Assembly: GCA_013426185.1 (NCBI GenBank)
Contig: CP058602.1
Span: 399,123 to 463,122, forward strand
Direction: 5' to 3'
DNA length: 64,000 nt
Source of the DNA: Candidatus Woesebacteria bacterium
Lineage (GTDB): Bacteria > Patescibacteriota > Microgenomatia > UBA8517
The notes beneath the pieces are model-generated. The model searched no databases and was not told the origin of the DNA. It worked only from the letters and a program-made list of their open reading frames with translations. Positions 8,466-23,522 of this stretch are shown here, in pieces (position 1 is the first letter of the stretch; every line of letters begins with the position of its first letter). A program made the translations under genes and the position numbers.

Positions 8466-8490
8466 TCAATTCGGTCCCGGATCGGGGTAA
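8122..8490 (+). pseudogene. truncated DDE transposase (integrase core)
   Basis: IQSDNDHEF, TPDQNGVVERSHRTDEEEFY, YNTKRLHFSLNYLTP; N-terminal HTH and first catalytic Asp absent. Confidence 0.85.
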
Positions 8491-11225
8491 TGACATTTCT
8501 TCCATTTCTTCCCCGACCCGCACCAACAGGGATCGTTTCGGCCAATCTTTTTGGAGGAAGCCTGAACCCTTTTGACCAAAGGCTTGTCTCCACTTACCGA
8601 CTCTTTTACTTCGGGAGATTGGCTTAAGCCCATCATATCGGATGTATCAACATTAGTTTGAGCCATATCAAGCGGAATCTCCTGAGGCCTTTCCATAACA
8701 CCAATCCTAAATATTCTTCGCGTAAGTTCGTCATCAATTTTTTCGAGAAGACTTTCAAAAGAATTATAAGCTTCATTTTTAAACTCAACCAAAGGATCCT
8801 TCTGTGCGTAAGCCTGAAGCCTTACATTTTCTCTTAAGCTATCCAAATAATCTATATGTTCAATCCAAAAATGATCAATCGCAGAAAGATAAGCAAACTT
8901 GTCAATTTGGTTTGAGATATCAGTGCCATACTGCTTTACCCGCGCATCATAAACATCTTTTACAACTTTCAACAAAAACCCTCTAATCTCATTTTCTCCC
9001 TCTAATTCGCTCAATTTTTTCTTAAAAGCGTCTTTTGAGGCATCATCAAAAGGAACTATTTCCAAAAATAAAGCCAAAAGATATTCATAATCAAAACTAC
9101 CTTCCCGTTGTGAAGACAAAATAATTCTGTCAATTTTCTTCTCAAGCTTTTCAAAAACAACATCATGAAGGTCATCTGCCATCAAAACTTTCCTTCTTAA
9201 CTTATAAACAACCTCCCTTTGCTGATTAGCAACATCATCGTATTCAACTACACTCTTCCTCAAATCAAAATTGAAGCCCTCAACCTTAATTTGCGCCTGC
9301 TCAATCGCCCGCGAGACAAGCCTATTTTCTATTGGCTGGTCTTCAGGAATAGCAAGCCTATCCATCAAAGATTTGATTTGATCTCCACCAAAAATACGCA
9401 TCAAGTCATCTTCAAGAGAAAGATAAAAACGAGAGGAACCAGGGTCACCCTGCCTGCCTGAACGACCACGAAGTTGATTATCAATTCTTCTTGATTCATG
9501 CCGCTCGGTGCCAATCACATAAAGCCCCCCAAGGCTAACAACTTTGTCATGATCCTCTTGCCATTTTTTGACTTCTTTTGATTTTGCCCATTTTTCCTTG
9601 GAAACCCCAGCCGGACAATCCGGAAAAGAACCTCCTAAGACAATATCAACTCCTCGCCCAGCCATATTGGTTGCAACAGTTACTGCATGGAGTTTACCAG
9701 CATCAGCAATAATTGATGCTTCTTTTTCGTGGTTTTTGGCGTTTAGGACATTGTGGGGAATTTTCTTTCTCTTTAAGTACTGGCTTATTATTTCGTTCTT
9801 TTCAATAGAAGTCGTACCCACCAAAACTGGCTGACCCTTTTTGTATCTTTCCTCAATATCAGAAACTATGGCTCCATATTTGGCACGAAGAGTTTTGTAA
9901 ATCAAATCAGGGTGATCAACCCTAATCATTGGCTTATGAGTTGGAATAACAACCACATCAAGTTTATAAATCTTTTTGAATTCCTCAGCTTCAGTGGCTG
10001 CAGTTCCTGTCATACCTGAAAGAACCTCATACATCCTGAAGTAATTCTGAAAAGAAATAGTCGCCAAAGTCTTTGACTCCTGCTGAATAGGAACGCCTTC
10101 TTTGGCCTCAACTGCCTGATGCAAACCATCACTCCAACGCCTGCCAAACATCAGTCTTCCCGTAAACTCATCAACAATAATCACCTGATTATCTTTGACA
10201 ATATAATCTCTATCTTTCAAAAAAAGCGTCTTGGCACGAAGCGCGTTTTCAATATGATGTATGGCGTCAAAATCCTTTTCATAAAGGTTGGGAACACCCA
10301 AAAGCTTTTCTACCCTTGCAATACCATGGTCAGTTAAAGTCGCTGTTTTTGCCTTTTCGTCAATTTTAAAATCAGTATCAGGGTTTAATTTTTCAACAAG
10401 CTGAGCAAATTGATAATATTTCTGGGTTGGTTCACTATCAGGAGCAGAAATTATAAGCGGCGTTCGCGCCTCATCAATTAAAACTGAGTCAACCTCATCA
10501 ACCACGGCAAAATAATGCTCACCCAAGCCTTCCTTTCCACCAGTCTTTTTGCCAAGAGGTGATGATTGAACAATCTCATCCAAACTTTGGGCCATATTGT
10601 CGCGAAGATAATCAAAACCAAACTCATTATTGGTGCCATAGGTAATATCACACTCATAAGCCTCGCGACGAGAGGATGGCCTTAAATGTTCAAGCCTCTC
10701 ATCCCCATGGCTTTTGTCAGAATAATTAGGATCAAAGACAAAAGATTTTGACTCCTGAATAATAATACCAACCGAAAGCCCCAAGAGATTAAATGTCGGT
10801 CCATTCCAACCAGCATCGCGTCTTGCTAGATAGTCATTGACCGTCACAAGATGAGCGCCTCTTTCTTTTAAGGCACGAAGATACAAAGCAGGAACAGCAG
10901 ATAAAGTTTTTCCCTCGCCTGTTTTCTGCTCTGCCACTTTGCCTTCAAACAAGGCAACTGCCGCCATCAACTGGACATCAAAATGCCTAAGGCCAATAGC
11001 GCGAAAGGAAGCCTCACGCACTAAAGCAAAGGCTTCAGGCAAGATGGATTCCAAAGACTCGCCTTTATTAATTCTTTCTTTAAACTCCTGTGTCTTTTTG
11101 GCAAAATCCGAGTCTTTTAGCTTTTTGACCTTTGAATCGTAAGAGTTGATTTTCTCAACTACTTTGGCAAGGCGATCAACTTCTTTAGCATTTAAATCAA
11201 GCAATTTGGAAATAAATTTAAACAT
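8466..11225 (-). CDS. secA: preprotein translocase subunit SecA
   Basis: KTGEGKT, VTVNDYLA, DEVDSVLIDEARTPLII, GRSGRQGDPG, C-terminal SEC-C GRNDPCWCGSGKKWKKCH. Confidence 0.98.
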   Translation of the reverse strand: MFKFISKLLDLNAKEVDRLAKVVEKINSYDSKVKKLKDSDFAKKTQEFKERINKGESLESILPEAFALVREASFRAIGLRHFDVQLMAAVALFEGKVAEQKTGEGKTLSAVPALYLRALKERGAHLVTVNDYLARRDAGWNGPTFNLLGLSVGIIIQESKSFVFDPNYSDKSHGDERLEHLRPSSRREAYECDITYGTNNEFGFDYLRDNMAQSLDEIVQSSPLGKKTGGKEGLGEHYFAVVDEVDSVLIDEARTPLIISAPDSEPTQKYYQFAQLVEKLNPDTDFKIDEKAKTATLTDHGIARVEKLLGVPNLYEKDFDAIHHIENALRAKTLFLKDRDYIVKDNQVIIVDEFTGRLMFGRRWSDGLHQAVEAKEGVPIQQESKTLATISFQNYFRMYEVLSGMTGTAATEAEEFKKIYKLDVVVIPTHKPMIRVDHPDLIYKTLRAKYGAIVSDIEERYKKGQPVLVGTTSIEKNEIISQYLKRKKIPHNVLNAKNHEKEASIIADAGKLHAVTVATNMAGRGVDIVLGGSFPDCPAGVSKEKWAKSKEVKKWQEDHDKVVSLGGLYVIGTERHESRRIDNQLRGRSGRQGDPGSSRFYLSLEDDLMRIFGGDQIKSLMDRLAIPEDQPIENRLVSRAIEQAQIKVEGFNFDLRKSVVEYDDVANQQREVVYKLRRKVLMADDLHDVVFEKLEKKIDRIILSSQREGSFDYEYLLALFLEIVPFDDASKDAFKKKLSELEGENEIRGFLLKVVKDVYDARVKQYGTDISNQIDKFAYLSAIDHFWIEHIDYLDSLRENVRLQAYAQKDPLVEFKNEAYNSFESLLEKIDDELTRRIFRIGVMERPQEIPLDMAQTNVDTSDMMGLSQSPEVKESVSGDKPLVKRVQASSKKIGRNDPCWCGSGKKWKKCHYPDPGPN

Positions 11226-11305
11226 ACTCAGTGCAAAAAATATTAACAAGGTAAGTATAGCAAAGAAAACTGCTAAGTGATAATGAAGACTTAAGAAATC
11301 AAAAA

Positions 11306-11384
11306 CAGTAGGCTAAAGGCCGTAAAAGAAAAAAGCAACCAAAGAACGCTTCTTCCTTTTTAAAAAGACGCTTTAGCCTACTGT
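11306..11384 (-). terminator. large stem-loop closing the accessory operon (putative terminator or 3' end structure)
   Basis: ACAGTAGGCTAAAG ... CTTTAGCCTACTGT inverted repeat just beyond the last trailer arm. Confidence 0.5.
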
Positions 11385-11390
11385 AATTTT

Positions 11391-11403
11391 AAGCCAAACA
11401 AAC
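11391..11403 (-). promoter_or_regulatory. trailer arm of module 5
   Basis: AAGCCAAACAAAC is the exact reverse complement of 12921-12933. Confidence 0.7.
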
Positions 11404-11468
11404 TTAAAAGAGGTGAGGCAAACCCCTAAAAATAAGGATAAAAAAGGGTCTGCCCCACCTAATAAAAC

Positions 11469-12800
11469 TTAATACTGAGGATCAGGGTTCTCCTCACAAT
11501 ACTTCAAAATACGCCTGTGCGTCTCCTCTGGGGGAAGAAGTCTCCCTGCGCTGTCAAAGAAACAGTCTTTTTTGACTTTTTCCTGTTCCTTCCGAAGCGC
11601 CTCTGGGATTAACCTCTCGGAACGTCGGGTATAGGTTTCCAAAGGTATAACACTTATCTTTGGAAAAGGAATCTGAGGACTAGGGACGAGGCGAATTCGG
11701 GAAGTGGTATTATGATCCGCTGTCATCAGAGCAAACTGAGCTAGTGGATCCGCAGACTTGTTGCCATCTAAAACCGATACTATGTTAGTATTAGATGTAC
11801 CAAGCTTAGGATAAAAACCACCTCTTCCAACCATAGCCGCAACCCTACTTATCGCCTCAGTAGGAATTCCACCCGTAACCATTCCACCACCCGGTTCTGC
11901 TACAGCTCTAAAAGCATCAACTGCACGCGACGCGCTCTCATAAAAAGTAATACAATGGTAGTGCGCCCCAAGAACAAGGCTACGGTGGTACCCCCAAAGA
12001 AAGACCTGCCACTGAAATTCCTGCGGGACCCCCTTGGGAGCAGACCAAACTTCAACTAAGCCATGGGGGGTATTTTGGAGAAGATCTAAATAATCACTTA
12101 GGTCCTCACCACGCTCTCCCACAAAGACCAACACTGCACAAATCCTCGAGTCCTGAGTCAATTTTAAAACTTCCTTCCAGGCCTCAAGAATAAGAGTAGT
12201 TTTACCCAAGCCGCCCTCACCAAGAATATAAGTTGTTTGCCCATAACCTTGAACAGCTCCCAAAAGATAAATCATTCTCCAAGCTATACTTCCGCCTTTA
12301 TCCAGAGGGATTATCTCTTGAGGATATTCAGGCAACACTTCAAAGTCAAAAAATGGCCTATGAGAGAAAGGCTTTTGGCCATTTACGGAAGTGATACAGA
12401 CCAGATCACCCTCAACCCCCACCTCCACTTTATCCCCCATCCTCAAATTGTAATACTTCACTATAGGTGGAGGGACTTCCAAACCCCAGCTTTTCAAATC
12501 ATCCGAATTGATATCACCCTTTTTCAAAAGGTCGGCATAATCTGCAGGGTTTAGGTAGTGCGGGTAAGGGTTCGGAAGAGTCACACTCTCTCCATCAAAA
12601 GCCCAAAAACACGTGGGGCCGTCTGGCTTGACCAGGACTGCCTGAGAACTCTGGCCTATTATCTGATCAGATGGAAAAGAAGTTAAAACCCTTCGCAGGT
12701 CTTTTTCTAAAACCAAAACGGTCCTGGGAACAGGTTTATCCCCATAAAGGAGTAGCTCTTTAGGGTCAACCTCCTCCTGAATAACATAAGCAGAAATCAT
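11469..12800 (-). CDS. divergent transcription termination factor Rho paralogue
   Basis: OB-fold segment VPPPIVKYYNLRMGDKV (Rho VSPSQIRRFNLRTGDTI); GYGQ...GEGGLGKT; VGERGED (DERPEE); Q-loop GGMVTGGI (GKVLTGGV); FPKI...YTRRSERL (FPAI...GTRKEELL); strong SD AGGAGG. Confidence 0.8.
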   Translation of the reverse strand: MISAYVIQEEVDPKELLLYGDKPVPRTVLVLEKDLRRVLTSFPSDQIIGQSSQAVLVKPDGPTCFWAFDGESVTLPNPYPHYLNPADYADLLKKGDINSDDLKSWGLEVPPPIVKYYNLRMGDKVEVGVEGDLVCITSVNGQKPFSHRPFFDFEVLPEYPQEIIPLDKGGSIAWRMIYLLGAVQGYGQTTYILGEGGLGKTTLILEAWKEVLKLTQDSRICAVLVFVGERGEDLSDYLDLLQNTPHGLVEVWSAPKGVPQEFQWQVFLWGYHRSLVLGAHYHCITFYESASRAVDAFRAVAEPGGGMVTGGIPTEAISRVAAMVGRGGFYPKLGTSNTNIVSVLDGNKSADPLAQFALMTADHNTTSRIRLVPSPQIPFPKISVIPLETYTRRSERLIPEALRKEQEKVKKDCFFDSAGRLLPPEETHRRILKYCEENPDPQY

Positions 12801-12920
12801 AGTTCCTCCTTTTTCTATTACTATTTTACCCTCGAGGACTTGGCGCTATTTTTCTTTTTGGATACGCCACGCCATAGGCTTAAAGCAAAACTTAAAGACC
12901 ATGGCATGGCGTACCCAATC

Positions 12921-12942
12921 GTTTGTTTGGCTTTCAAAGTGC
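12921..12942 (-). promoter_or_regulatory. boxA-like motif GCACTTTGAAAG with leader arm of module 5
   Basis: Minus strand GCACTTTGAAAGCCAAACAAAC directly after a hairpin. Confidence 0.7.
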
Positions 12943-13075
12943 CCTTCTTTAATTAAAGCTATAGAAGGCTTATCTTCCTGCTTTAAGCAAAGAAGAATTA
13001 AATTTTTAAATAAATTCTCTAGTTTTAACCAACTAACAAAAGCTAGTTGGCTAAAAAAGAGACACAGCAAGAAAG
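12936..13075 (-). repeat. structured intergenic repeat copy D (trailer arm + three hairpins + boxA-like motif)
   Basis: Near-identical to 15182-15320 and 18768-18905. Confidence 0.9.
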
Positions 13076-13146
13076 TTAATTAAAAAGGGCGTTTACCAAA
13101 AGAAAAGGAGGATGGGAATCAAAGATCCCCATCCTCTGGGCCAAAC

Positions 13147-13329
13147 TCAAAAATTAGAGATCCAGTAATTAATGAGACTAAGTAATATACAGAGAAAAGA
13201 AAGCACCAAAAAACTTAAAACATAAAACAAGCAAGATCGCCACACCATTGTCTTTTCAAACCTGTTGGGATCTGGCAATTCAAATCTTACATATCTTCCC
13301 ATAGTTACCTCAACTCCATAAACTGGCAC
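13147..13329 (-). CDS. small membrane protein
   Basis: One TM segment; operon position; followed by a 3' hairpin at 13108-13136; start uncertain. Confidence 0.5.
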   Translation of the reverse strand: MPVYGVEVTMGRYVRFELPDPNRFEKTMVWRSCLFYVLSFLVLSFLCILLSLINYWISNF

Positions 13330-13799
13330 AAAAACAAATAGTAATACCGGCGAGAAGGAAACTCTTTCCTAACTGCTGGGCCAACAATAGCAAGACTCCA
13401 ATCAAGGTAAAAAGGTATTCCAGTGGATGAAACAGCAATACTATCAACGCCAAATTCAACCAGAGCCTGTTTCGGCCAAAGGGAAGCCATCGCTTCTAAA
13501 AATCTATCCACCCAAAGAGCCAGATTACAACCCTCGTCTAAAAACTCTTCGAGAGTAATGTAGCCATTATTAGGATAGACAATAGCTCTTTCACCCTCAG
13601 GACTAGCCTCAAACCCAAGGCCTAACTTTCTAGCCTGAAAGTTAAAAGCCTCTAGAACACGATCCCTCTGATCAGGGTTGCCAAAAATCTGGACTCTAGC
13701 AAATTCTGGGGAATATCTAAATCCCCAAACAGGAAAACTCCCATCCCAGGATCCAGGAAGAAAACAATTAAACGCAGGAGCATAAATATCTGTGTCCAC
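13305..13799 (-). CDS. hypothetical protein
   Basis: GTG start with strong SD GGGAGG. Confidence 0.7.
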   Translation of the reverse strand: MDTDIYAPAFNCFLPGSWDGSFPVWGFRYSPEFARVQIFGNPDQRDRVLEAFNFQARKLGLGFEASPEGERAIVYPNNGYITLEEFLDEGCNLALWVDRFLEAMASLWPKQALVEFGVDSIAVSSTGIPFYLDWSLAIVGPAVRKEFPSRRYYYLFLCQFMELR

Positions 13800-13814
13800 T
13801 TTTCCTCCCTCTTT

Positions 13815-15029
13815 TTACTCCTGATCGCTCCCTACATAGATAACAGAACCAGAAGGGCCTTGGCTTTCATCAACCTCATTAGAAGATGAAGAAGTTGAAG
13901 ACGAACTAAGAACCCTGCCAGTTAACAACGAAAAGAAAGGGCCCTGCTGCCCTTGCTGCTGCTGTTCCGCCTGCAACCGTCTGGACTCATCCCTCGCTCT
14001 GAAAAGAATCTCTTTCAGACGAGAAACATCATCCATATAAGGAAGAAAATCTGTGCCGGATTTATTAATGTAGATGATTAGCAAAGCCCCAGTGCCATAC
14101 TTCCTGTACCAGAGTGAAAGGAAAAATTCCTTAAACCACCCGGTTTTGAACCTGTTTTTTACCTCCGGATCTAAATCGACTGTAACATCCTCCGGATCTG
14201 CAGCCGTCAACACATCCTGGATACCAGAGTTGACAGTCAAAGAGGTAACAGGAAGCCCTGAATGGCCACCTGAAAAAAACAGATGCTTCAAAAAAGCCCG
14301 TGTAGTCTCAGGAAGTAAAAGTATTGCTAAGACTAAAATAATGCTCCCAAAGATCCACAAGTTAAAAATACCAACAATCAAAAGAAAAACCATAAAGATC
14401 AATGGCTTGATAACAGGCATCAAGCCAAGGAGGTTCTTCCTGATCCTTAACAAGACTGAATTGTGTGTAAAGACTGTAAAAATTGTCGTCCTCCGATCCC
14501 ACTCCAGAAGGGATAACTTCACAACAAGGACCAACACTAAAAGACAAACAAGAATTATATTTGCCCCAATATTTAGAGGCAAAGGTAAAAAAAACCATAA
14601 AGCGAAAGAGATAAACCAACCCAAGATGGTAACAAGTGGCAAAAATTGCCAGTTCATCACAAAATCCACTGTCGCCACTTTTGAAGGCAGCTGACGGTGG
14701 AATAAAATCTCACGATCTCGAGCGCGATAAACTAACTTGTCTTCTTTGGGAAGCCAGAAAAAACTAAATAGCCGGAGAAGAAAACCAGGTTTCTCCTCCG
14801 ACCCGACCGCAATTTTGGAAAAGATGGAATACAACAATATTACAGCCGCTAAAGTAGCAAGGCTGTAAAAAATGTAATATCCCGCTCTTCCAAAATCGAT
14901 CTGAAATTCAGGAAGACCAAAACTTACAAGGTCTATCCCAAAAAGGCTTAGCATAAAAAGGTAACCCAAAGCGGCTACCAAAACAAAAACCAAGGCCAAT
15001 ATAGCCCCTAAAAAATTCTTTCCTTCCAT
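13815..15029 (-). CDS. polytopic membrane protein with possible C-terminal bacterial PH-like domain
   Basis: About 6 TM segments; YGTGALLI...FLPYMDDVSRLKEIL resembles the bPH_2 pattern; ATG 15029 with SD GGGAG. Confidence 0.65.
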   Translation of the reverse strand: MEGKNFLGAILALVFVLVAALGYLFMLSLFGIDLVSFGLPEFQIDFGRAGYYIFYSLATLAAVILLYSIFSKIAVGSEEKPGFLLRLFSFFWLPKEDKLVYRARDREILFHRQLPSKVATVDFVMNWQFLPLVTILGWFISFALWFFLPLPLNIGANIILVCLLVLVLVVKLSLLEWDRRTTIFTVFTHNSVLLRIRKNLLGLMPVIKPLIFMVFLLIVGIFNLWIFGSIILVLAILLLPETTRAFLKHLFFSGGHSGLPVTSLTVNSGIQDVLTAADPEDVTVDLDPEVKNRFKTGWFKEFFLSLWYRKYGTGALLIIYINKSGTDFLPYMDDVSRLKEILFRARDESRRLQAEQQQQGQQGPFFSLLTGRVLSSSSTSSSSNEVDESQGPSGSVIYVGSDQE

Positions 15030-15060
15030 AGATCTCTCCCTTCCGAAAAACAAATTTTTA

Positions 15061-15322
15061 TGGCTCCTCTTGTTTTTGGGTGAGCCTCGATTAATCTCCT
15101 AAACTCAAATTAGAGAATTAAGAAACTAATCAAGGCTCACCCAGATTGGTGTGGGATAATCTTCTTTCTTGCTGTGTTGTTAAAGTGCCCTTCTTTACTT
15201 AAAGAATAGAAGGCTTATCTTCCTGCTTTAAGTAAAGAAGAATTAAATTTTTAAATAAATTCTCTAGTTTTAACCAACTAACAAAAGCTAGTTGGCTAAA
15301 AAAGAGACACAGCAAGAAAGAA
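15061..15322 (-). repeat. structured intergenic repeat copy A (trailer arm, hairpins, boxA-like GCACTTTAACAA, leader arm, 5' hairpin)
   Basis: About 260 bp nearly identical to 18646-18905; stems contain G-U pairs on the minus strand. Confidence 0.95.
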
Positions 15323-15377
15323 AAAAGAAGTGAAAGGACCGCCAAAAAGAAGGCTTTGAAACTTGAAAGCAGTCCTT

Positions 15378-16634
15378 TCACTTACAAAACAAAATAGAAT
15401 GGTCTTGGATATTCGAGGAGGCCTGCCTTAGCCAAACATGCGCATGGGCAGCCGTTGAATTCCCAATATTACCCACACTGCCTATTTCCCGTCCGGCTGT
15501 GACTTGGCTCCCCACGGCAAGATTTTCAGGAAAATGCAAATGCATTATCCCTAGTTCTGTACCGTTTTCCAACTTGAGGGTTAGAATAGAATTGCCCAAG
15601 CCATCATAAAACATAGCTGTGACAACCCCATTCATTGGAGTAAAAAGCGGAGTCCCATCAGAAGCTATATAATCATAGCCTTTGATGAGTCCACAGCTCC
15701 AACTTGTACCCTCACAGCCGGTGTGGTAACCTCGAGGACCAATGGTATACATGCCACCAATAAGGGGCTTGCAGTCACCATCGCCTCCAGGATTATCAAC
15801 CGGCAAACCTTCACCTGGGCTGTCATCATAGGCATAAGCAACTTTCGGAAAGATTCCAAGAAGTTGCAAAGCCTCCAAGACAATTTTTTTCCAGAACAAA
15901 GGCTTAAGAACTACACGGTTGGCCCCGGGGGTTGTTGCTATCGGCAATTTATCTCCAGTTCTACTCAGAAGCTCTGAGTAGAGCCGGTAGACAAATTCAC
16001 CCTGCGGAGGATAACGATTCCACCCCATAAACTCGTTAATAAAATTCTCCTTCCCCTTAGAATAGGCGTCATCCAGTCCTATCAGCTTGTAATAAACACA
16101 AGCCGCATAGGCTGACGCCCGCCTATCAGTTCGATCAGGGATAGGGAACACTTCCAAAAGTTCAGGGTAAAGCTCCGGGATTTGAACGGTCCAGAGCCTT
16201 TCCCATGTGGAATCTATAAACTGCCAAGTACCAATAGCAGTTGCCCTGTTTTTAGTCCTATAATTGGTATAGGAACTAGATTCACTAAAAGCAACCGCTA
16301 TGTTAAGGCGCGGATCACACCATGGGAAATGCATATAAGCCTCCCAGACCGGATCCCACACCTCAGGAGGAGCATAAAACTCTACCTCATTTCCATTCCA
16401 ATAGGTTATGGTGAATGGTTGGATAACTGTCTCTTTACCATCCACCACAACTGGAACGGAACGGATATTAAAATCCTGGACCCCCAGGAGTCCGGAAACG
16501 ACTTCTTCATAATGCTGGGGGTCCGTGTCATGATAGTAACCCAAGGATAAAACCATGGTTACTATCAAGACAAATAGGAAAAAAGGGGTATTAGCCAAAA
16601 GAAGAAGGAAGAGTTTAAGAGTCAGTTTCTTCAT
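15378..16634 (-). CDS. membrane-anchored lytic transglycosylase (SLT-like) + M23 peptidase cell-wall hydrolase
   Basis: IAVAFSESS...AIGTWQFIDSTW (SLT); GYDY..GTPLFTPMNGVV...MHL...VGNIGNSTAAHAH (M23); N-terminal TM. Confidence 0.85.
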   Translation of the reverse strand: MKKLTLKLFLLLLANTPFFLFVLIVTMVLSLGYYHDTDPQHYEEVVSGLLGVQDFNIRSVPVVVDGKETVIQPFTITYWNGNEVEFYAPPEVWDPVWEAYMHFPWCDPRLNIAVAFSESSSYTNYRTKNRATAIGTWQFIDSTWERLWTVQIPELYPELLEVFPIPDRTDRRASAYAACVYYKLIGLDDAYSKGKENFINEFMGWNRYPPQGEFVYRLYSELLSRTGDKLPIATTPGANRVVLKPLFWKKIVLEALQLLGIFPKVAYAYDDSPGEGLPVDNPGGDGDCKPLIGGMYTIGPRGYHTGCEGTSWSCGLIKGYDYIASDGTPLFTPMNGVVTAMFYDGLGNSILTLKLENGTELGIMHLHFPENLAVGSQVTAGREIGSVGNIGNSTAAHAHVWLRQASSNIQDHSILFCK

Positions 16635-18615
16635 CCTCTTCCCCTTTCGGCTTAATACGTTCGACAAAACTCAGAAGGGGGTAGTGGAGATGCTGATTCA
16701 GGGTGACTACTAACTCACCTGTTTGCGGGTTTATCACCTTAGCCAGATGACCTGTGCCCTCACCCATCTTAAACAAAAAATTAAAGGATTGGACCACATC
16801 TCCAATAACTTTCTTAAAATCATCGACATTCTGGATAGCTATCCAGATACGTATGCCAGCGTTTGCCCCTTGAGTTACAAACCAGTTAATAGTTCTTGCA
16901 AGATTAACTGCCGTGTCCCAAGGCAAGCTTCCCAAGACAGGGTGATCCTTCTGCTGGTTCGCCAAGTGCGACCAGTTATCTACAACCAACAGTAGATCAC
17001 TCCCAGTCTGAGGATAAAAATCTACCATAGCCCTTTTAAGGCTATTCAGAAAGCTATCCAGATACGCAAGCCAGCCAAGAGTATTGCCGGACTTAAGTTC
17101 AAAAGCGACAGACCTCGTTGGAAAACCGTATTTCTTCCACTCTTCAACAAGCTCTACAACATGGCCTTCTGCGATTTTGCCATATTCAACATGAAGCTGC
17201 AATTGTTTCTCTCTAACCTCTTTGTCAGTCGGATTGTTGTTGCTATCCTCATTTCTGAGAACATCCAATGCATCCGGCAGAATTAACTCAAATACCTTAC
17301 CACCTTCTTCACGTATTCTAGTCGCAGCTCTATCCAAACGGCTTGCAGTCAAATCCACCCACACTACAACTCTTTTTGCCTGAGCCGCTAACACCTGCAT
17401 AATAGTGGATTTACCCGCCTTCTTTGATGGGCCCACAAACACCCACGAAGGGTACAATTTGGGATTTATTAGATAGGGGGTTCTGCCCACATGGCCAAGA
17501 ACCAATGACCCGTTCGGATCTCCAACGGGTATAATGGCCTCGGCCACTTGCTGCAAAATCCCAGAAGGAGAGACACTAGTCCATCCTCTAACAGAGTGTC
17601 TTCCAAAACGGCCAGGCAAATTCGGACCGCCAGGGAAAAAGGCGCGCCAGGCAATTTCCAGATCAGCCCCTGTAACAAGCTTCCAGTTACTGATTTCCAG
17701 TAACTTTCCGCTCATTGACAATACTGACTGAGAGTCACCCTTGCGCACTTTTAACCGCAGAAGTGGCGTAACAAAAAGAAAGGGTGTTCCTCTCTGAAAT
17801 TCGAGGCGGAGGAAAATATCAACAGGCAGCTTTAGCAACTCGGCAAAATTCTTCGAGCTGAGCTGCCCGCCATCCCAGAAATAAAACGACCATTGATTGT
17901 CTATGACAACCTGATCGTCTACGAACACCACCGACCGCGGCGATGCATAGTCTAGGTGACACGCATCACCCGTCATAGGGTCGTGGGAAATATAGTTAAG
18001 CTTCGGAGGAAGACCATAAACTAATGAATGGAGCCCTGAACCTGCATTACTACTGTTCAGGACTTTCCCTCCAAAAACACCACTAAAACGTGGTGCGAAG
18101 TTGGGAGGAACAAAAAGCCAAAGAGTTCGAGCAATGTGGATAGAACTATCATCGTTCCCCACTGCCCATCTTTTTATAGCATCCAAGAAGCTCCTCCGAT
18201 AGTCGTTTGCCCCCTCAGTCAGACGAGACAGGTTTCCAAAAAACCGGCCAAACATCAGGGGGTGGCAAGTGAGCACCAAGCGCAAGTCATAGCATCCCAT
18301 CTCGGGAAGCTTGAATAGCGCCGGCACCTCAACTACCTTGCCATTACCGGCGTCAAATGGGTAAGGAGAAAGGGTACTCCCGTCAGTAAAAACCAATACA
18401 GAGTTGGCACCGCTCTTCCCAACAAAGGTAGCTTGTATCTTGTCACCGTCAACCACTTTTGACGGTAATACCCTAAGACCACCAAATAACCAAGCGGTAC
18501 TGGTGTCCTCGTTGTGCCCATTTACCCCGACAACAGGGTCTCTAGGAGGTGGTAAAAGAGGCTGATGTCTCCCATTAAGACCCAAACGATGGAGTAAAAG
18601 CTGAAGACTATTCAT
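16615..18615 (-). CDS. VirB4/HerA-like P-loop ATPase
   Basis: C-terminal VFVGPSKKAGKST (Walker A), LLLVVDNW (Walker B), GIRIWIAIQNVDDF sensor; large N-terminal domain. Confidence 0.65.
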   Translation of the reverse strand: MNSLQLLLHRLGLNGRHQPLLPPPRDPVVGVNGHNEDTSTAWLFGGLRVLPSKVVDGDKIQATFVGKSGANSVLVFTDGSTLSPYPFDAGNGKVVEVPALFKLPEMGCYDLRLVLTCHPLMFGRFFGNLSRLTEGANDYRRSFLDAIKRWAVGNDDSSIHIARTLWLFVPPNFAPRFSGVFGGKVLNSSNAGSGLHSLVYGLPPKLNYISHDPMTGDACHLDYASPRSVVFVDDQVVIDNQWSFYFWDGGQLSSKNFAELLKLPVDIFLRLEFQRGTPFLFVTPLLRLKVRKGDSQSVLSMSGKLLEISNWKLVTGADLEIAWRAFFPGGPNLPGRFGRHSVRGWTSVSPSGILQQVAEAIIPVGDPNGSLVLGHVGRTPYLINPKLYPSWVFVGPSKKAGKSTIMQVLAAQAKRVVVWVDLTASRLDRAATRIREEGGKVFELILPDALDVLRNEDSNNNPTDKEVREKQLQLHVEYGKIAEGHVVELVEEWKKYGFPTRSVAFELKSGNTLGWLAYLDSFLNSLKRAMVDFYPQTGSDLLLVVDNWSHLANQQKDHPVLGSLPWDTAVNLARTINWFVTQGANAGIRIWIAIQNVDDFKKVIGDVVQSFNFLFKMGEGTGHLAKVINPQTGELVVTLNQHLHYPLLSFVERIKPKGEEDEETDS

Positions 18616-18645
18616 AAAACTCTCCTTTCCGAAAAAAAATTTTAC

Positions 18646-18908
18646 TGGCTCCTCTTGTTTTTGGGTGAGCCTCGATTAATCTCCTAAACTCAAATCTAGA
18701 GAATTAAGAAACTAATCAAGGCTCACCCAGATTGGTGTGGGATAATCTTCTTTCTTGCTGTGTTGTTAAAGTGCCCTTCTTTACTTAAAGAATAGAAGGC
18801 TTATCTTCCTGCTTTAAGTAAAGAAGAATTAAATTTTTAGATAAATTCTCCAGTTTTAACCAACTAACAAAAGCTAGTTGGCTAAAAAAGAGACACAGCA
18901 AGAAATTT
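18646..18908 (-). repeat. structured intergenic repeat copy B
   Basis: Near-identical to copy A; trailer arm 18893-18908, boxA-like motif 18763-18774, leader arm 18748-18763. Confidence 0.95.
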
Positions 18909-19044
18909 TTGGATAAAAGAAAGTTAATCGGCAATTAACCAAAGCTTTTTTGGAATGCTTCAAATTAACTTTCTCAAACAAAAAAAGAGAGGATGGTAGT
19001 TCCTTGATTTGTTCCTTGAAAGAAAAGGAACTACCATCCCTCAA

Positions 19045-19371
19045 TTATCTCTTAATTACTCTTATTACCTTACTGTAAGGTTTATACGACCTTACTTTTT
19101 TCCGGTAAATCACAAACCTAACTAGCCTTGTGGCTAGAAAGACTAGTAATATACTTACCGAAAGGGGTAACAGGCAAGCAAGAGACAGACGGAAAAATAA
19201 AACTACTACTGGTTTCCATGCTACCGACAAAATGCAGAAAAAGGAAACCAGTAGCATCAAAAACGGGGCAATATACCTAGTGAAGTACCTCTTCACTGGA
19301 TAGTGCTCCGTTGGGTCAAACAAAAAATATAACCAGAACCTAACTTTTTCCCTAAGATTCCTCGTATTCAT
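19045..19371 (-). CDS. small two-TM membrane protein (position of VirB3/PrgI-like genes)
   Basis: Two hydrophobic segments, SD GGAGG; family inferred only from position. Confidence 0.65.
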   Translation of the reverse strand: MNTRNLREKVRFWLYFLFDPTEHYPVKRYFTRYIAPFLMLLVSFFCILSVAWKPVVVLFFRLSLACLLPLSVSILLVFLATRLVRFVIYRKKVRSYKPYSKVIRVIKR

Positions 19372-19380
19372 CTTAACCTC

Positions 19381-20769
19381 CTAGGGAATTACAATATCGT
19401 CTGAATTAGAAAGCTGGGAAATTTTTTCCCCAAGACTGGTAAGGTTGGGGTCTCCCTTAGCCTTACTGGCAGCTTGGAGAATACCACCAAACACCTTCTC
19501 CTTGGGATAGGCCTGTTGCAGGTCTTGGCCTGCCTCTTTAGCAGCTTTCCTATCAATCAATCCCTCTGCTACCTGTGTAGTAGCGTTGACAACAGGGATA
19601 ACGATAGGTGCCGCCTCAGGGGCTGCCACAGCTGTCACTAAATTTACAGCCGTAGCCACCTTACCCACAGCCGCCTTTGCCTTACTAGCCTCCTCTTGCG
19701 GCTTGGATGGAGAAGGCGTTGGAGAAGACTGGTTAGGGCCATTCTCTCCCGGGCTTGGGGGGATGACAACATCTCCGGAAGGAACATCTGTTGGCCCACT
19801 GGAAGTGAAACCACTATCCCCAGCCGGTCCAGAAGGGACATCTCGTTCAGAGCCAGAAGAGGAAGAGCCAGCTGTTAGCAAAGGAACAAATTCTTCGGGA
19901 ACTACAACTTCTCCCCCTCCGCTTCTACTAGCTCGCCTACTCCTCTCCCACGGTTCTAAAACAGAATTCCAGTCTACCGGAGGTCTTTCCTTGCTCACAC
20001 CCTCTATAGCCGTTTCTTCTTCATCCCTAAATTCGGGAGTGAGGATTGCGGCCAGGAAAGGTACGGTGACATAACAAAAGAACATTGTCAAAATAACTGT
20101 CCCCGTATAAAACACATTTACTAGGACAGTTACTGGACCAAAAGCCCAATCAGGATAATTGCTTCCAAAGAATTGAACGATGGCATTGAAAAGGGCAAGA
20201 AAAATTGCCCATCCAAAAACCTCGCCAATTATGAAAGCAATACCCTTAATTGATCGCCCCAAAATGGACCAAGATAGAGCAACGATAGCTGCAATCAACA
20301 TAACGACCTGCCACCTTGAGACAATCAAAGGGATCAGAAAAGTCAACGTAACCCCCCATGCCGCACTTGCCAAATTTCCCAAATCAGGAGACAACTCCCA
20401 CCGCATGGCGGTAAGGATTTTCTCCAGCCTAAGTTCGGCGGGTAAGACTATTTCACCCAATCTGGTAGTGAAGTCTATAAATAACAACACTACCATCGGG
20501 ATAGAGAACATCAATATCATGCTAGTTACAAGCCCAGCACTAACAACTTTCCCTCTACCCACACTACGTGCAAGGGATATAAGCGCTGAGATAAAACCAG
20601 CAAGGATTAAAAAAATCAAGACCGGACCAAGATACTGTTGAATTTCCTGCGGCGAGATCTTTAAAAAAAAGCTGTCCCGCCAGTGTCCTTCAACAGCATC
20701 TGGGATTTGACACCCCGTCAGCAGAAGACTGCCGACGGTTAAGAAGAAAAATGCCGGCAGTCTCTTCAT
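19381..20769 (-). CDS. polytopic membrane protein with lipoprotein signal and Pro/Ser/Gly-rich tail (VirB6-like architecture)
   Basis: LLTGC lipobox, about 6 TM helices, low-complexity C-terminus; SD GGAGG. Confidence 0.65.
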   Translation of the reverse strand: MKRLPAFFFLTVGSLLLTGCQIPDAVEGHWRDSFFLKISPQEIQQYLGPVLIFLILAGFISALISLARSVGRGKVVSAGLVTSMILMFSIPMVVLLFIDFTTRLGEIVLPAELRLEKILTAMRWELSPDLGNLASAAWGVTLTFLIPLIVSRWQVVMLIAAIVALSWSILGRSIKGIAFIIGEVFGWAIFLALFNAIVQFFGSNYPDWAFGPVTVLVNVFYTGTVILTMFFCYVTVPFLAAILTPEFRDEEETAIEGVSKERPPVDWNSVLEPWERSRRASRSGGGEVVVPEEFVPLLTAGSSSSGSERDVPSGPAGDSGFTSSGPTDVPSGDVVIPPSPGENGPNQSSPTPSPSKPQEEASKAKAAVGKVATAVNLVTAVAAPEAAPIVIPVVNATTQVAEGLIDRKAAKEAGQDLQQAYPKEKVFGGILQAASKAKGDPNLTSLGEKISQLSNSDDIVIP

Positions 20770-20785
20770 TGCCCCTCCTATAGTA

Positions 20786-21070
20786 CTACGGCAACAGGCT
20801 GGGGGCGCTTCCCGAAAAGACAGAGTTGTAGATCCCCTCTGCCCATCTTACGATTTGAGCGTTGGAGAGGTTCATGATATCCCTAAAGCCGACTACCACA
20901 AAGGCCGCTGCAATTAACACGCCAAAAATAATTACCCCGAGGCCCCAAACAGTTTGGTTGCCTCTCCAAACGCCGGAGACCCCGGCTTGAGAAAACAGGG
21001 CCTGGATTAAAAAATACAGGCCAAAAACTATCATCGCGATGCCAGCGACAACTCCTACAAAAGCAATCAT
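20786..21070 (-). CDS. small hydrophobic pilin-like protein (VirB2/TrbC-like)
   Basis: Two Gly-rich TM helices; first gene of module 2; SD AAGGAG. Confidence 0.55.
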   Translation of the reverse strand: MIAFVGVVAGIAMIVFGLYFLIQALFSQAGVSGVWRGNQTVWGLGVIIFGVLIAAAFVVVGFRDIMNLSNAQIVRWAEGIYNSVFSGSAPSLLP

Positions 21071-21106
21071 TTTACACTCTCCTTCTGAAGATTGGGTTAG
21101 ATTTTA

Positions 21107-21397
21107 GGCTCCTCTTGTTTTTGGGTGAGCCTCGATTAATCTCCTAAACTCAAATTAGAGAATTAAGAAATTAATCAAGGCTCACCCAATTTGGGATTTT
21201 TGTTAAAAAGGTTCTCTTGTCGCCTCAAATTTCTTGCTGTGTTGTTAATGTGCTCTCCTTTACCAAGTTAAAAGAAGGGCAACCCTTCTTTTCTTAAGGC
21301 AAAGAAAATCAAACTTTTGAAGACAAAACTTAATTTGTCTTCAAAACTAAACACTCAAATAATCTTAAGTGCTTAGTTTTAAATAGGGGTGTAATTG
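21107..21397 (-). repeat. structured intergenic element copy C
   Basis: 21107-21188 identical in large part to copies A/B; boxA-like GCACATTAACAA 21242-21253; leader arm 21227-21242; trailer arm 21383-21397; spacer hairpins differ in sequence but not in layout. Confidence 0.9.
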
Positions 21398-21483
21398 AGA
21401 AAGACCTGCTGGTGGAGACGAGATTAAAAAACGCGCAAAATGCGTTTTAATCTTTGCCAACCACCAGCAGGATGAATTTAAAA

Positions 21484-21564
21484 TGGTGGGGAGAGGATTC
21501 GAACCTCCTTATTCCTGGAGTATAAAATTCCAGCGCTCATCCTTTCTCTTTGAGCTTCCCCACC
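21484..21564 (-). ncRNA. tRNA-like element with non-canonical 9-nt anticodon loop
   Basis: GGTGGGG AA GCTC-13nt-GAGC G CTGGA-ATTTTATAC-TCCAG GAATAA GGAGG-TTCGAAT-CCTCT CCCCACC A folds as a full cloverleaf. Confidence 0.8.
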
Positions 21565-21575
21565 AATACCAATAA

Positions 21576-22061
21576 TTACCGATAACGACGCCACTTTTTC
21601 TGGCCGGCACGGTCAACAAATTCCTGCCAGACAGCAACCCCTTCTGGAATATCCTCTTCCCGTGTGAAGAAAACAGGGTCGCCACCCATATTAGCCAAGA
21701 AACGACCGGTTGGCCTTTCTTTATTGCTATTACCAGGCGTCGCTTTTTTTTGGCCCTGAGGACGATTGCCTTTTTCTTCCTCTTCCATCTGCGCGAGGAC
21801 TTCTCGCACCACCCACTGTGGGCAGAAATCCTCAAAGTTGGCGAGGAAGTAAAAAACAAGGACATCGTCCAAGGGACCCACAATAAGATCCGGAAATACA
21901 ACCCAAAGAAATCCGGCCACAAAACCAAGCTTAAGCCAACCGGAAACTCTGGGATCTTTTAAGAGCCGAATTTTAAGCTTCAGACCTTTTAAAATCTGAA
22001 GCATAATTCCAGCTCTTTCCGGATCACGGCGAACAGGGGATTTGGGTTGGGGAGTCGCCAT
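21576..22061 (-). CDS. YkvA/DUF1232-family membrane protein
   Basis: LLKDPRVSGWLK...PDLIVGPLDDVLV; SD GAAGGAGGT. Confidence 0.75.
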   Translation of the reverse strand: MATPQPKSPVRRDPERAGIMLQILKGLKLKIRLLKDPRVSGWLKLGFVAGFLWVVFPDLIVGPLDDVLVFYFLANFEDFCPQWVVREVLAQMEEEEKGNRPQGQKKATPGNSNKERPTGRFLANMGGDPVFFTREEDIPEGVAVWQEFVDRAGQKKWRRYR

Positions 22062-22129
22062 AAAAAGACCTCCTTCTACTCCCCAACCCTTAAATATCCC
22101 TCACGGCTGGGGAGCATCAGAAAAGGAAC

Positions 22130-22588
22130 TCAAGCCGTAGTAGCCGGCTCGGCAGCCTTTTTCGCATTGCCATTTTCGTTGTCTTGGTACTCCTTGTAAC
22201 GTTTTTGCCAAGGCCTATCTTTGATAGCTTTGATGAACTCATCCTTAACTTGCCGAAGCTGCTCGTCAGAACAACCGAGGTCTTTCATTACCAACGTCAG
22301 CAGCCAAGGGGTATTATGCCGAGTTACATCAAAACGTCGGCCATTTGGTAAACAGATAAACAATCTACCACCTTCGAAAGAGAAGTGTGGCACAGAAGGA
22401 CGACTCAAGCGAGAAACAATTTCTGCAGCCACTCTCGCAGGGCCCGCAAAGGAAACATTGTTTGGACCCGTCAGAATCACCTTCTGTTCACCCATACCAT
22501 CCCAATCGCCTGGAGTAAAAAATCTTGGGAAGACCTCCGGGTTCTCAGCCTTTATTTCAAATGAGCCAATTCTCAACGTGCCAGACAT
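22130..22588 (-). CDS. hypothetical protein (first gene of the operon)
   Basis: ATG with SD AAGGAG. Confidence 0.7.
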   Translation of the reverse strand: MSGTLRIGSFEIKAENPEVFPRFFTPGDWDGMGEQKVILTGPNNVSFAGPARVAAEIVSRLSRPSVPHFSFEGGRLFICLPNGRRFDVTRHNTPWLLTLVMKDLGCSDEQLRQVKDEFIKAIKDRPWQKRYKEYQDNENGNAKKAAEPATTA

Positions 22589-22879
22589 ATCTCACTCTCC
22601 TTAAACGAATGAAAAGATTTTTACTGACTTACAGAACTTACAGAAATTAAAAACCCGGTTTCCTCAATATGACCTCCTTCCTTAATTGAAAGAAAAAACT
22701 ATGTGCCCTGCTTTTTCTTTTTAGCTTGGGGCCGGAATACTTTTAAACTTAATAAACAATAAACACAAAAACAAAAATAATAAAAATGGAAAACAATTTT
22801 AAGAAGACTGTTGAAGAAATAACGCTTAAAAGCATTCCTGCCCCAAGCTTTTTGGCCCAAACTACCCCTGTCTTAATTC

Positions 22880-22923
22880 CAATTACACCCCTATGTTAAG
22901 GTGCAATTCCTTTTTCAAGGAAT
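22880..22923 (-). promoter_or_regulatory. boxB-like GAAA hairpin + boxA-like GCACCTTAACA + leader arm of module 1
   Basis: Minus strand ATTCCTT-GAAA-AAGGAAT T GCACCTTAAC ATAGGGGTGTAATTG; the arm is complementary to 21383-21397. Confidence 0.75.
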
Positions 22924-23011
22924 AAGAGCAGGAACAAAAAAAGCTGCCACAGGCAGCCTCTCAACCACTTTTCAACTTAAAAAGATCTAACCACTTATAG
23001 GATTATGGCCT

Positions 23012-23040
23012 ATTATAAAAAAACTTTTATTTATTGTCAA
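23012..23040 (-). promoter_or_regulatory. consensus sigma70 promoter driving the 11.3-23 kb operon
   Basis: TTGACA (23040-23035), 17 bp, TATAAT (23017-23012). Confidence 0.9.
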
Positions 23041-23093
23041 GCTTTTCAAAACAAAAGAGGCAAAACCCACTAACAAAATTACTATAAGAGATT

Positions 23094-23522
23094 TTAATTA
23101 TTCTTATTACGGGATAAATTAAAATTCAAAAACAAAGAAATCATAAAAAGAAAAAACATAACTGTTTGACAAGTAAGACAGACTGGGCAGACAACTTTAA
23201 TAAAGAAAATCTCCAAGATTGTAAGCCTCAAGCAAAATATCATCCCAAAAGAAGACATAAAAAGAGCCAGTCTTTTCCTTTCGGTGAGAGAGGAAAACAA
23301 AATCACAGCATAACCAATAAGACCAACCAAAGCCACAGGAACACCGGCGAAAGTAGCCAAAGACCCAGAAATAACAGCCTGGCAATTTACTTTATCGTTA
23401 ATGTCGCAAAATAAAACAGGTTTGGGATTGTAAAAGTTGTAAAGAAGATAACTAGCAAGAATAATGCCAACAAAAGAAAAAGCCGCCATCAAATAAAACC
23501 AAATTTTCTTATTTAAAGCCAT
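23094..23522 (-). CDS. vitamin K epoxide reductase (VKOR) family protein
   Basis: CDINDKVNCQAVISG loop cysteines, GVPVALVG, CPVC active site. Confidence 0.9.
   Translation of the reverse strand: MALNKKIWFYLMAAFSFVGIILASYLLYNFYNPKPVLFCDINDKVNCQAVISGSLATFAGVPVALVGLIGYAVILFSSLTERKRLALFMSSFGMIFCLRLTILEIFFIKVVCPVCLTCQTVMFFLFMISLFLNFNLSRNKNN

Follow-up and report, generated by a model that had tools for sequence, protein, structure and literature searches.

A 64,000-nucleotide stretch of the chromosome of a Candidatus Woesebacteria bacterium (positions 399,123–463,122 of contig CP058602.1, assembly GCA_013426185.1; hereafter the window) encodes a divergent relative of the transcription terminator Rho as the last gene of a cluster resembling a type IV secretion system (T4SS). 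By sequence comparison, this protein and its relatives form a separate, rare and fast-evolving clade of the Rho fold that coexists with canonical Rho and retains the residues for ATP hydrolysis. The reading that we favour, tentatively and as somewhat short of probable, is that the protein is a Rho-derived ring motor moving RNA through a VirB4-type secretion channel, in place of the usual coupling protein. An initial annotation had offered three roles (motor of a membrane machine, terminator or remodeller of structured RNAs, or inhibitor of a host's Rho); the motor fits best, with remodelling of structured RNAs as its main rival.

A Rho-fold ATPase with altered motifs

The AlphaFold model of the protein, built from a 35-row family alignment, has a pLDDT of 93.6. 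A Foldseek search with this model put Rho first, and all 30 rows listed were Rho, in keeping with the Rho layout claimed earlier. In VIA-align, the model matched M. tuberculosis Rho with a Z-score of 33.9 (rmsd 3.0 over 339 aligned residues), followed at Z-scores of 24.9–20.9 by A-, V- and F-type and type III ATPases and by E. coli Rho (2ht1; 23.5, shorter chain). The model thus combines an OB-type domain with a RecA/F1-type ATPase and lies closer to Rho than to F1, V1 or type III secretion system (T3SS) ATPases, which confirms the protein, as modelled, as a Rho-fold ATPase. An ESM Atlas search returned Rho-like clusters only, and the best PDB sequence matches were Rho (8hsj, E 2e-9). Family profiles gave a divided answer: the best matches were Rho models, but all fell far below their cut-offs (NF006886, E 9e-9, 34.6 bits against 315 in a family profile search; TIGR00767, 23.9 bits against 509; NF041509, 'Rho, short form', a weak match at 33.3 bits against 628). 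Identity to E. coli Rho is 23% over 318 columns. The protein has no transmembrane segment and is soluble by hydropathy.

The altered motifs quoted in the initial annotation are all present as written, at residues 194–201 (GEGGLGKT), 286–289 (FYES) and 361–366 (ADHNTT), and the canonical PPKAGKT, GSxMD and EEFKGTGN are lost. The Walker A variant GEGGLGKT is typical of the window's subclade only, many relatives carrying APGGxGKT instead. ADHNTT had been taken for the R-loop, which is wrong: it aligns to K336–M341 of E. coli Rho, whose R-loop ends at K326 (10.1101/069559 and PMC4499133), and the true R-loop column lies at about N347–S349. Nor is the N-terminus a new fold, as 'novel' had implied. 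Because the superposition on 2ht1 starts with model residue 1 placed on E. coli residue 50, we read this segment, on the model, as an OB domain with an insertion, lacking the first ~49 residues of Rho and its first helical bundle.

Catalytic residues are kept and RNA-contacting residues are remodelled

We compared 52 family rows with 89 canonical Rho rows, after dropping duplicates and short fragments and using E. coli numbering. The hydrolysis set is kept across the family: G183 and K184 in 100% of rows, T/S185, E/D211 and D/E265 in 99%, R212 in 96%, R269 in 86% and R366 in 98%; G288 is likewise kept in 100%. Roles for E211, R269, G337, K326, T286 and V284 of Rho are named in 10.1101/069559. 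The motor of the window protein contains G199-K200-T201, E229, R230, E288-S289, R292, the Q-loop at 306–311 and R392; K200, T201, E229, R230, E288 (D to E), R292 and R392 supply the ATP-hydrolysis residues, as in canonical Rho. R212 and R366 are residues that we take, by their numbers, to act in ATP hydrolysis by Rho.

The primary RNA site of Rho, which we take to comprise D78, Y80, E108, R109 and Y110, is not kept: D78 and Y80 are replaced and the 105–110 loop is gone, with a gap at Y110 in 98% of rows. At these columns the window protein has G106, E108 and the deleted loop; its alignment over F62–R66 is unreliable. The family N-domain carries conserved aromatic and basic positions of its own. 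At the secondary site, the Q-loop retains its length (mean 13 residues in both sets), hydrophobic residues at 284–285 and G287–G288, and at least one Lys or Arg is still present in the R-loop of 43 of the 52 rows. G337 is replaced by D in 53%. The window protein keeps T309 (T286) and the Q-loop glycines, has lost K283 and carries S349 in the K326 column, with K348 adjacent. In canonical Rho, V284 touches RNA via its backbone (10.1101/069559).

A rare clade beside canonical Rho

The window's genome is a single contig of 818,817 bases with a canonical rho at 803.5–804.9 kb, which has PPKAGKT, LLDS and FKGTGN and scores 508.4 bits against a cut-off of 509.45; in five of five other carrier genomes tested, canonical rho scored above the cut-off. 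Grouping the window protein with the ordinary Rho of its class was rejected (approximately unbiased (AU) test, p 5e-90). These three results bear out the earlier suspicion of a repurposed Rho paralogue.

Our trees covered the motor domain only and were quick ones without a mixture model. The family supplied 46 rows (profile score ≥200, a partly circular choice) once six near-duplicate or fragmentary ones had been set aside. The 31 canonical rows were E. coli, Priestia and a sample of 29 out of 87; a further 13 rows came from the 23 other divergent Rho proteins, and three outgroup ATPases completed the set. In the first tree the family lay inside Rho on one branch (support 98) along with two long-branch rows of the 'other' set; after removal of four long rows it formed one clade with support 99. 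In this reduced tree the family and the outgroup ATPases lay on one side with support of 45, which neither shows nor rejects a placement relative to the outgroup, and an origin of the whole family from the class's canonical Rho clade was not rejected (AU p 0.50). Nine other divergent Rho-like proteins without FKGTGN (P0038, P0062, P0067, P0085, P0088, P0094, P0095, P0098 and P0111) lie outside or at the edge of the family.

A search of 1.84 billion representatives gave 111 matches, 33 of them at E up to 1e-10; one named relative belongs to Ca. Woesebacteria. The family profile, made from 35 of the closest sequences, scores members in genomes at 206–519 bits and canonical Rho at 143–168. With it, and counting the window's genome each time, the gene was found in two of 401 genomes of the class, two of 125 of the window's family and three of 401 of the phylum; it is absent from two complete genomes of the window's genus. 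Elsewhere it occurs in one of 140 genomes of the family of G160, another carrier, and in 11 of 89 genomes of the WWE3 order. Narrow pattern queries found six metagenome loci and one genome locus, and no viral locus was among 92 pattern matches. Phage and plasmid records gave just 8 and 7 weak matches (23–28% identity, annotated rho or sctN where annotated), and searching 40 relatives with a single protein produced 29 weak matches (23–29% identity), the 14 fetched all having canonical FKGTGN.

Against the copy at locus L050, the ratio of nonsynonymous to synonymous rates (dN/dS) was 0.17 overall, 0.23 for the N-domain and 0.09 beyond residue 105, which places both N-domain and motor under purifying selection; dS was saturated in five of five more distant gene pairs. 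Among close relatives, residues 1–105 are less alike than the motor (57–75% against 88–98%). Because the L050 protein and P0114 are 97% identical over the N-terminal 105 residues (10001–10315 in L050) and 49% over their motors, the sequences suggest that the N-domain is exchanged between alleles.

The gene closes a divergent VirB4-type cluster

The context set comprised 17 loci, in three of which the contig ends before the ATPase position. Across loci the order is kept: a small membrane protein, a polytopic membrane protein, a second small membrane protein, a large ATPase, a peptidoglycan hydrolase, a membrane protein of 344–529 residues and, last, the Rho-like gene (window coordinates in Table 1). 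A VirB4-fold ATPase lies upstream of the Rho-like gene in 14 of the 17 loci, the other three contigs being too short. Of the 89 genomes of the WWE3 order, 12 have the ATPase, and all 11 carriers of the Rho-like gene are among them; the twelfth (G944) has its ATPase in three pieces. It is the 77 joint absences that carry this co-occurrence signal, because some of those genomes contributed to the profile and related genomes do not count as independent. Synteny and co-occurrence bear out the tie to secretion-like genes first noted from position. Two clusters are decaying: that of G956 (L079, 14686–19193) has its Rho-like gene in two parts and a short hydrolase open reading frame (ORF), and in G944 (L108–L110) no Rho-like gene was found beside the broken ATPase.

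The large ATPase is very divergent. Its model (pLDDT 78.5) returned TrwK/VirB4 or its complex in the ten best Foldseek rows (E 1e-11 to 5e-10; TM about 0.43–0.46 to TrwK/VirB4), which places it with the VirB4 ATPases of T4SSs by fold, without a sequence-profile match. The genome's ordinary VirB4-family gene, at 651 kb, is not picked up by the profile of the cluster ATPase. The pilin-like, VirB3-like and VirB6-like proteins had no profile match in family scans, and the 412-residue membrane protein, a candidate membrane anchor, had none in Pfam or PDB. Profile scans of the ten cluster ORFs matched no coupling protein and no relaxase, no genome-wide relaxase search having been run; the only VirD4-like matches in the genome are at 731 and 778 kb, more than 300 kb from the cluster. 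No terminal direct repeat longer than 10 nt was found at the cluster ends.

Several observations concern the surroundings. The cluster lies upstream of secA in the window (8466–11249), L050, L053 and L054, and has other neighbours in G160 and the WWE3 genomes. In L053 (5566–15844) about a dozen small unknown genes, possible cargo, lie inside or after the cluster, between its core and secA. In G160 (L047, about 18500–18750) a short hydrophobic ORF follows the Rho-like gene within its leader–trailer stem. Elsewhere in the window's genome, the 16S–23S spacer, 4.4 kb long (G000:C1:776050-780497, L091), contains a VirD4-like gene plus tRNA-Ile on the opposite strand, and an insertion with a 120-residue ORF (G000:C1, about 774070–774556) seems to break up the 16S gene close to its 5′ end. 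A motif pattern search of the 753 ORFs of this genome found no F1- or V-type ATPase subunit.

Table 1. Features of the cluster in the window
Position	Strand	Feature	Details
11391..11403	−	Trailer arm of Rho-like module	Perfect complement of 12933–12921
11411..11460	−	Hairpin, then T-rich sequence	Between Rho-like stop codon and trailer arm; partly listed as terminator-like
11469..12800	−	Rho-derived ATPase gene	443 aa; OB-type N-domain with insertion (about 1–150) and RecA-type motor
12921..12933	−	Leader arm of Rho-like module, 13 nt	Complement search
12932..12942	−	boxA of Rho-like module	Motif common to the genome's 16S and 23S leaders
13062..13075	−	Trailer arm closing module 3	Pairs with arm after boxA 15188
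13305..13799	−	Soluble accessory gene	164 aa; relatives in L050, L053 and G509 only
13815..15053	−	Conserved membrane protein	412 aa (344–529 in relatives); directly before Rho-like gene in 12 of 17 loci
15178..15188	−	boxA of module 3, leader arm after	Motif
15307..15322	−	Trailer arm closing module 2	Complement search
15378..16667	−	Membrane-anchored peptidoglycan hydrolase	M23 domain, E 6e-11; weak SLT match
16615..18615	−	VirB4-fold ATPase, very divergent	666 aa; Foldseek on model
18764..18774	−	boxA of module 2, leader arm after	Motif
18893..18908	−	Trailer arm closing module 1	Complement search
19045..19371	−	Membrane protein	108 aa; putatively VirB3-like, by size, hydropathy and position alone
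19381..20769	−	Polytopic membrane protein	462 aa; putatively VirB6-like, by hydropathy and position alone
20786..21070	−	Two-helix membrane protein	94 aa; putatively pilin-like, by size and position alone
21243..21253	−	boxA of module 1, leader arm after	Motif
21383..21397	−	Trailer arm closing module 0	Complement search
21484..21564	−	tRNA-like element in module 0	Rfam tRNA, 40.2 bits; not called by ARAGORN
21576..22588	−	Two small genes of module 0	152 and 161 aa; ORFs
22894..22904	−	boxA of module 0, leader arm after	Motif, second pattern
23012..23040	−	Sigma-70-type promoter	Match 12/12; sole perfect one among 24 sites in 11250–23100

Coding blocks are enclosed by rRNA-like leader–trailer arms

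Each of the five boxA sites in the window lies on the coding strand and is directly followed by an arm with a perfect complement (15, 16, 16, 14 and 13 nt) located 1.5–3.4 kb downstream, at the end of the block. By comparison, 39 of 600 random intergenic 23-mers reached a complement of 13 nt anywhere in 8 kb. The leader and trailer attributed earlier to the Rho-like module are real, and their sequence differs from the arms of the other modules. For the genome's 23S leader arm, the complement lies directly behind the gene and includes one G–U pair, so that the rrn-type layout found at all five window sites has a 23S counterpart. Naming the sites boxA was correct, the motif also preceding the genome's 16S and 23S genes, but their supposed anti-Rho role was an inference, and from the sequence they seem better described as the starts of leader–trailer helices. 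Such helices in rRNA are cut by RNase III (PMC10250234), and boxA is known outside rRNA, where it can repress as well as protect (PMC5725501). The genome encodes both NusB and RNase III.

Across loci, a hand count placed the best or second-best partner of 31 of 45 boxA-pattern hits in the spacer or trailer that comes next, with arm sequences that differ by lineage; most misses were the last module in WWE3 and in L053 and G509. Terminator-like hairpins occur in several spacers, and 27 terminator-like sites were predicted against 15.6 ± 3.9 in shuffles, many of them inside genes. The five blocks are not C-rich (C 0.18–0.21, G 0.24–0.26).

Hammerhead patterns (a CUGAUGA/GAAA core, three stems and an NUH site) were found five times in four of the 17 loci (two in G160, one each in G948, G898 and G899), in the spacer that precedes either the ATPase gene or the membrane protein gene; the window and the other 12 loci have none. 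In seven loci, four of them holding these patterns, no Rfam hammerhead reached its gathering score. Rfam miRNA matches on spacer hairpins were rejected as far below their gathering scores. A sixth boxA-like site (genome position 797310, 15-nt complement) was also rejected: it appears to lie in the end of a short gene, and its partner is a low-complexity repeat. The tRNA-like element has an enlarged anticodon loop, lies in a stretch identical in L050 and could be a processing signal inside module 0. RNA data consisted of one 215-nt contig from one of three runs, at 16470–16673, uninformative on expression or processing.

A tentative RNA motor and its rivals

If the protein is the RNA motor that we tentatively favour, it would form a hexameric ring and hydrolyse ATP. 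The operon would be read from one promoter with Nus-dependent read-through, and each block would fold into an end-paired RNA, to be freed by RNase III or, in some relatives, by a hammerhead. The motor might dock at the membrane, perhaps via the conserved membrane protein encoded just upstream, would recognise its substrate with the remodelled, exchangeable N-domain and would thread the RNA through the channel. Export of end-paired blocks would suit the RNA layout, and import of host RNA would suit the uptake reported for a member of the class. RNA traffic is plausible because this member, a Microgenomatia parasite in culture, acquires host RNA along a route that the 2026 preprint calls unresolved, its tubes possibly being T4SS pili (10.64898/2026.06.21.733656). 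Taken as a whole, a T4SS for RNA in which an rRNA-like operon is cut into end-paired segments that a Rho-derived ring pumps out, or in which the ring pulls host RNA in, is a rather unlikely proposal.

Several results weigh against RNA as the substrate or secretion as the process. The family has lost most of the basic residues of canonical Rho (G stands at K181 in 55% of rows and at K/R283 in 78%, while K is kept at K326 in just 23% and at K336 in 15%), its OB segment is net acidic (−2.3 against +2.4 in canonical Rho), and the loss of basic and pyrimidine-cleft residues would suit a substrate other than RNA just as well. Of 14 loci tested, four (the window, L050, L054 and G160) have a stem for the Rho-like module itself, and none was found in the other 10, also by a 7-kb exact-match search, which is blind to G–U stems such as that of L050. 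G509, a genome of the window's family in 50 contigs, has the Rho-like gene with no ATPase match. Gene neighbours need not be physical partners, and the pilin, VirB3 and VirB6 labels are putative, drawn only from size, hydropathy and gene order. The ten cluster ORFs gave no match to a reverse transcriptase or integrase, which an RNA-borne mobile element would need. At two of 401 genomes of its class the cluster is too rare to be a lineage-wide route of RNA feeding, and the available main text of the RNA-feeding preprint (10.64898/2026.06.21.733656) never mentions Rho.

The protein might instead be a dedicated RNA helicase or terminator that stays in the cytoplasm, acts on the transcript of its own operon to set the output of the secretion genes and moves nothing across the membrane; it would open the leader–trailer helices, recycle Nus-held loops or terminate at block ends. 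We regard this as unlikely on balance, if a serious contender. Rho is by descent a helicase and terminator (PMC4499133), the protein lacks a transmembrane segment, and an operon with one perfect promoter, terminator-like hairpins in its spacers and five boxA–arm pairs has an unusual need for RNA handling; tight co-occurrence with the ATPase is accounted for equally well. Yet canonical Rho is already present in all six carrier genomes checked, the pyrimidine cleft is lost while the five blocks are not C-rich, and the terminator-like sites, for all their excess over shuffles, often fall inside genes. A gene kept from relatives of 25–35% identity on, always last behind the same membrane gene, also looks more like a machine part. 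Less probable still is a role in protein export, in which it would unfold or translocate proteins for delivery to the secretion machine, much like the related type III export ATPases. The missing basic pore and OB residues would suit it, as would the exchangeable N-domain, the T3SS and F1/V1 ATPases as next structural neighbours (Z 21–25) with the outgroup ATPases on the family's side of the tree (support 45, neither shown nor rejected), and variable small genes in some clusters (L053) that could be cargo. This protein-based reading, however, leaves the elaborate RNA layout unexplained and sits poorly with the retained OB-type domain and Rho-type Q-loop, with a Rho match 9 Z units above the others and with the 43 of 52 family R-loops that hold Lys or Arg; Rho of M. 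tuberculosis, moreover, is a working RNA motor although it lacks K326 (PMC4499133).

Two further proposals fare worse. A secreted effector that enters a host bacterium and poisons its Rho via mixed rings, or terminates host transcripts, is very improbable: fast evolution and N-domain swapping between alleles are typical of conflict, and PMC11347177 mentions hetero-hexamers as one option for second Rho copies, but a dominant-negative inhibitor fits poorly because the catalytic residues, not all of which such a subunit would need, are conserved. Residues invariant in canonical Rho around 328–342 and at 353 are changed, making mixed rings look unlikely; N-domain and motor alike show low dN/dS (0.23 and 0.09), and such an effector would endanger the cell's own Rho too. 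We find it scarcely credible that the gene encodes an ordinary second Rho, or a decaying one, of the short 'Group B' type that is not specially linked to the genes around it. Second rho copies without the N-terminal domain do occur, in 116 of 2,730 genomes (PMC11347177), the NF041509 match points weakly the same way, and locus G956 is broken; the proposal is nonetheless largely refuted by co-occurrence, an own clade (support 99) and purifying selection, together with fixed synteny and a score of 33.3 bits against 628. Group B also keeps the RNA-binding domain (PMC11347177) that is remodelled here.

Relation to known systems

The protein shares with Rho of E. coli and M. tuberculosis (TIGR00767, NF006886) the OB-type domain and RecA-type motor, the Walker A Lys and Thr, the catalytic acid, R212, R269, R366 and the Q-loop glycines. 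It differs in lacking the N-terminal helical bundle and pyrimidine cleft, in its OB insertion and in being a rare accessory that coexists with canonical Rho. Group B short Rho is likewise a second copy beside canonical Rho, without the N-terminal domain and with conserved catalytic residues, but is reported mainly in Actinomycetota and PVC (PMC11347177), whereas the window protein is tied to a secretion cluster.

With the T4SS of Patescibacteria (PMC12102498) and the monoderm conjugation machines (VirD4/TcpA), the cluster has in common a VirB4-fold ATPase, a peptidoglycan hydrolase, small and polytopic membrane proteins and the absence of a recognised relaxase; unlike them, it is a second, far more divergent system whose second ATPase is Rho-derived. 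Its RNA layout resembles the boxA/Nus helices of rRNA operons (PMC10250234) in that boxA is followed by an arm pairing with the far end of the enclosed RNA, block by block, but it encloses protein-coding blocks of 1.5–3.5 kb with perfect stems of 13–16 bp (18 in G160) and, in some relatives, hammerhead patterns between blocks. The packaging motor P4 of Cystovirus is a RecA-type ring that moves discrete RNA segments through a portal. It serves as an analogy only: P4 belongs to an unrelated fold branch, is viral and acts in concert with a capsid and an RNA polymerase, of which neither was recognised in the cluster.

Our literature search, which covered listings and the openings of abstracts, turned up no account of a Rho relative forming part of a secretion cluster, nor of this family or cluster. 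'Rho' is absent from the available main text of the Patescibacteria T4SS paper (PMC12102498), and 'Patescibacteria' from that of the Rho survey (PMC11347177), whose supplement describes 'Rho-like' sequences that may bear on novelty. What we describe, a new Rho family set in a type IV-like cluster that is itself new, would be categorically new if RNA transport were shown.

Implications

Rho is among the most conserved of bacterial motors, and three odd features come together here: a Rho-derived second ATPase in the place of the coupling protein, coding blocks wrapped in boxA helices and, in some lineages, hammerhead patterns. If the RNA-transport reading is true, this would be a bacterial system devoted to RNA transfer, and its export form would give a chromosomal gene cluster a segmented RNA phase. 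Should the motor indeed move RNA, it would offer a concrete candidate, open to testing, for how RNA passes between Patescibacteria and their hosts.

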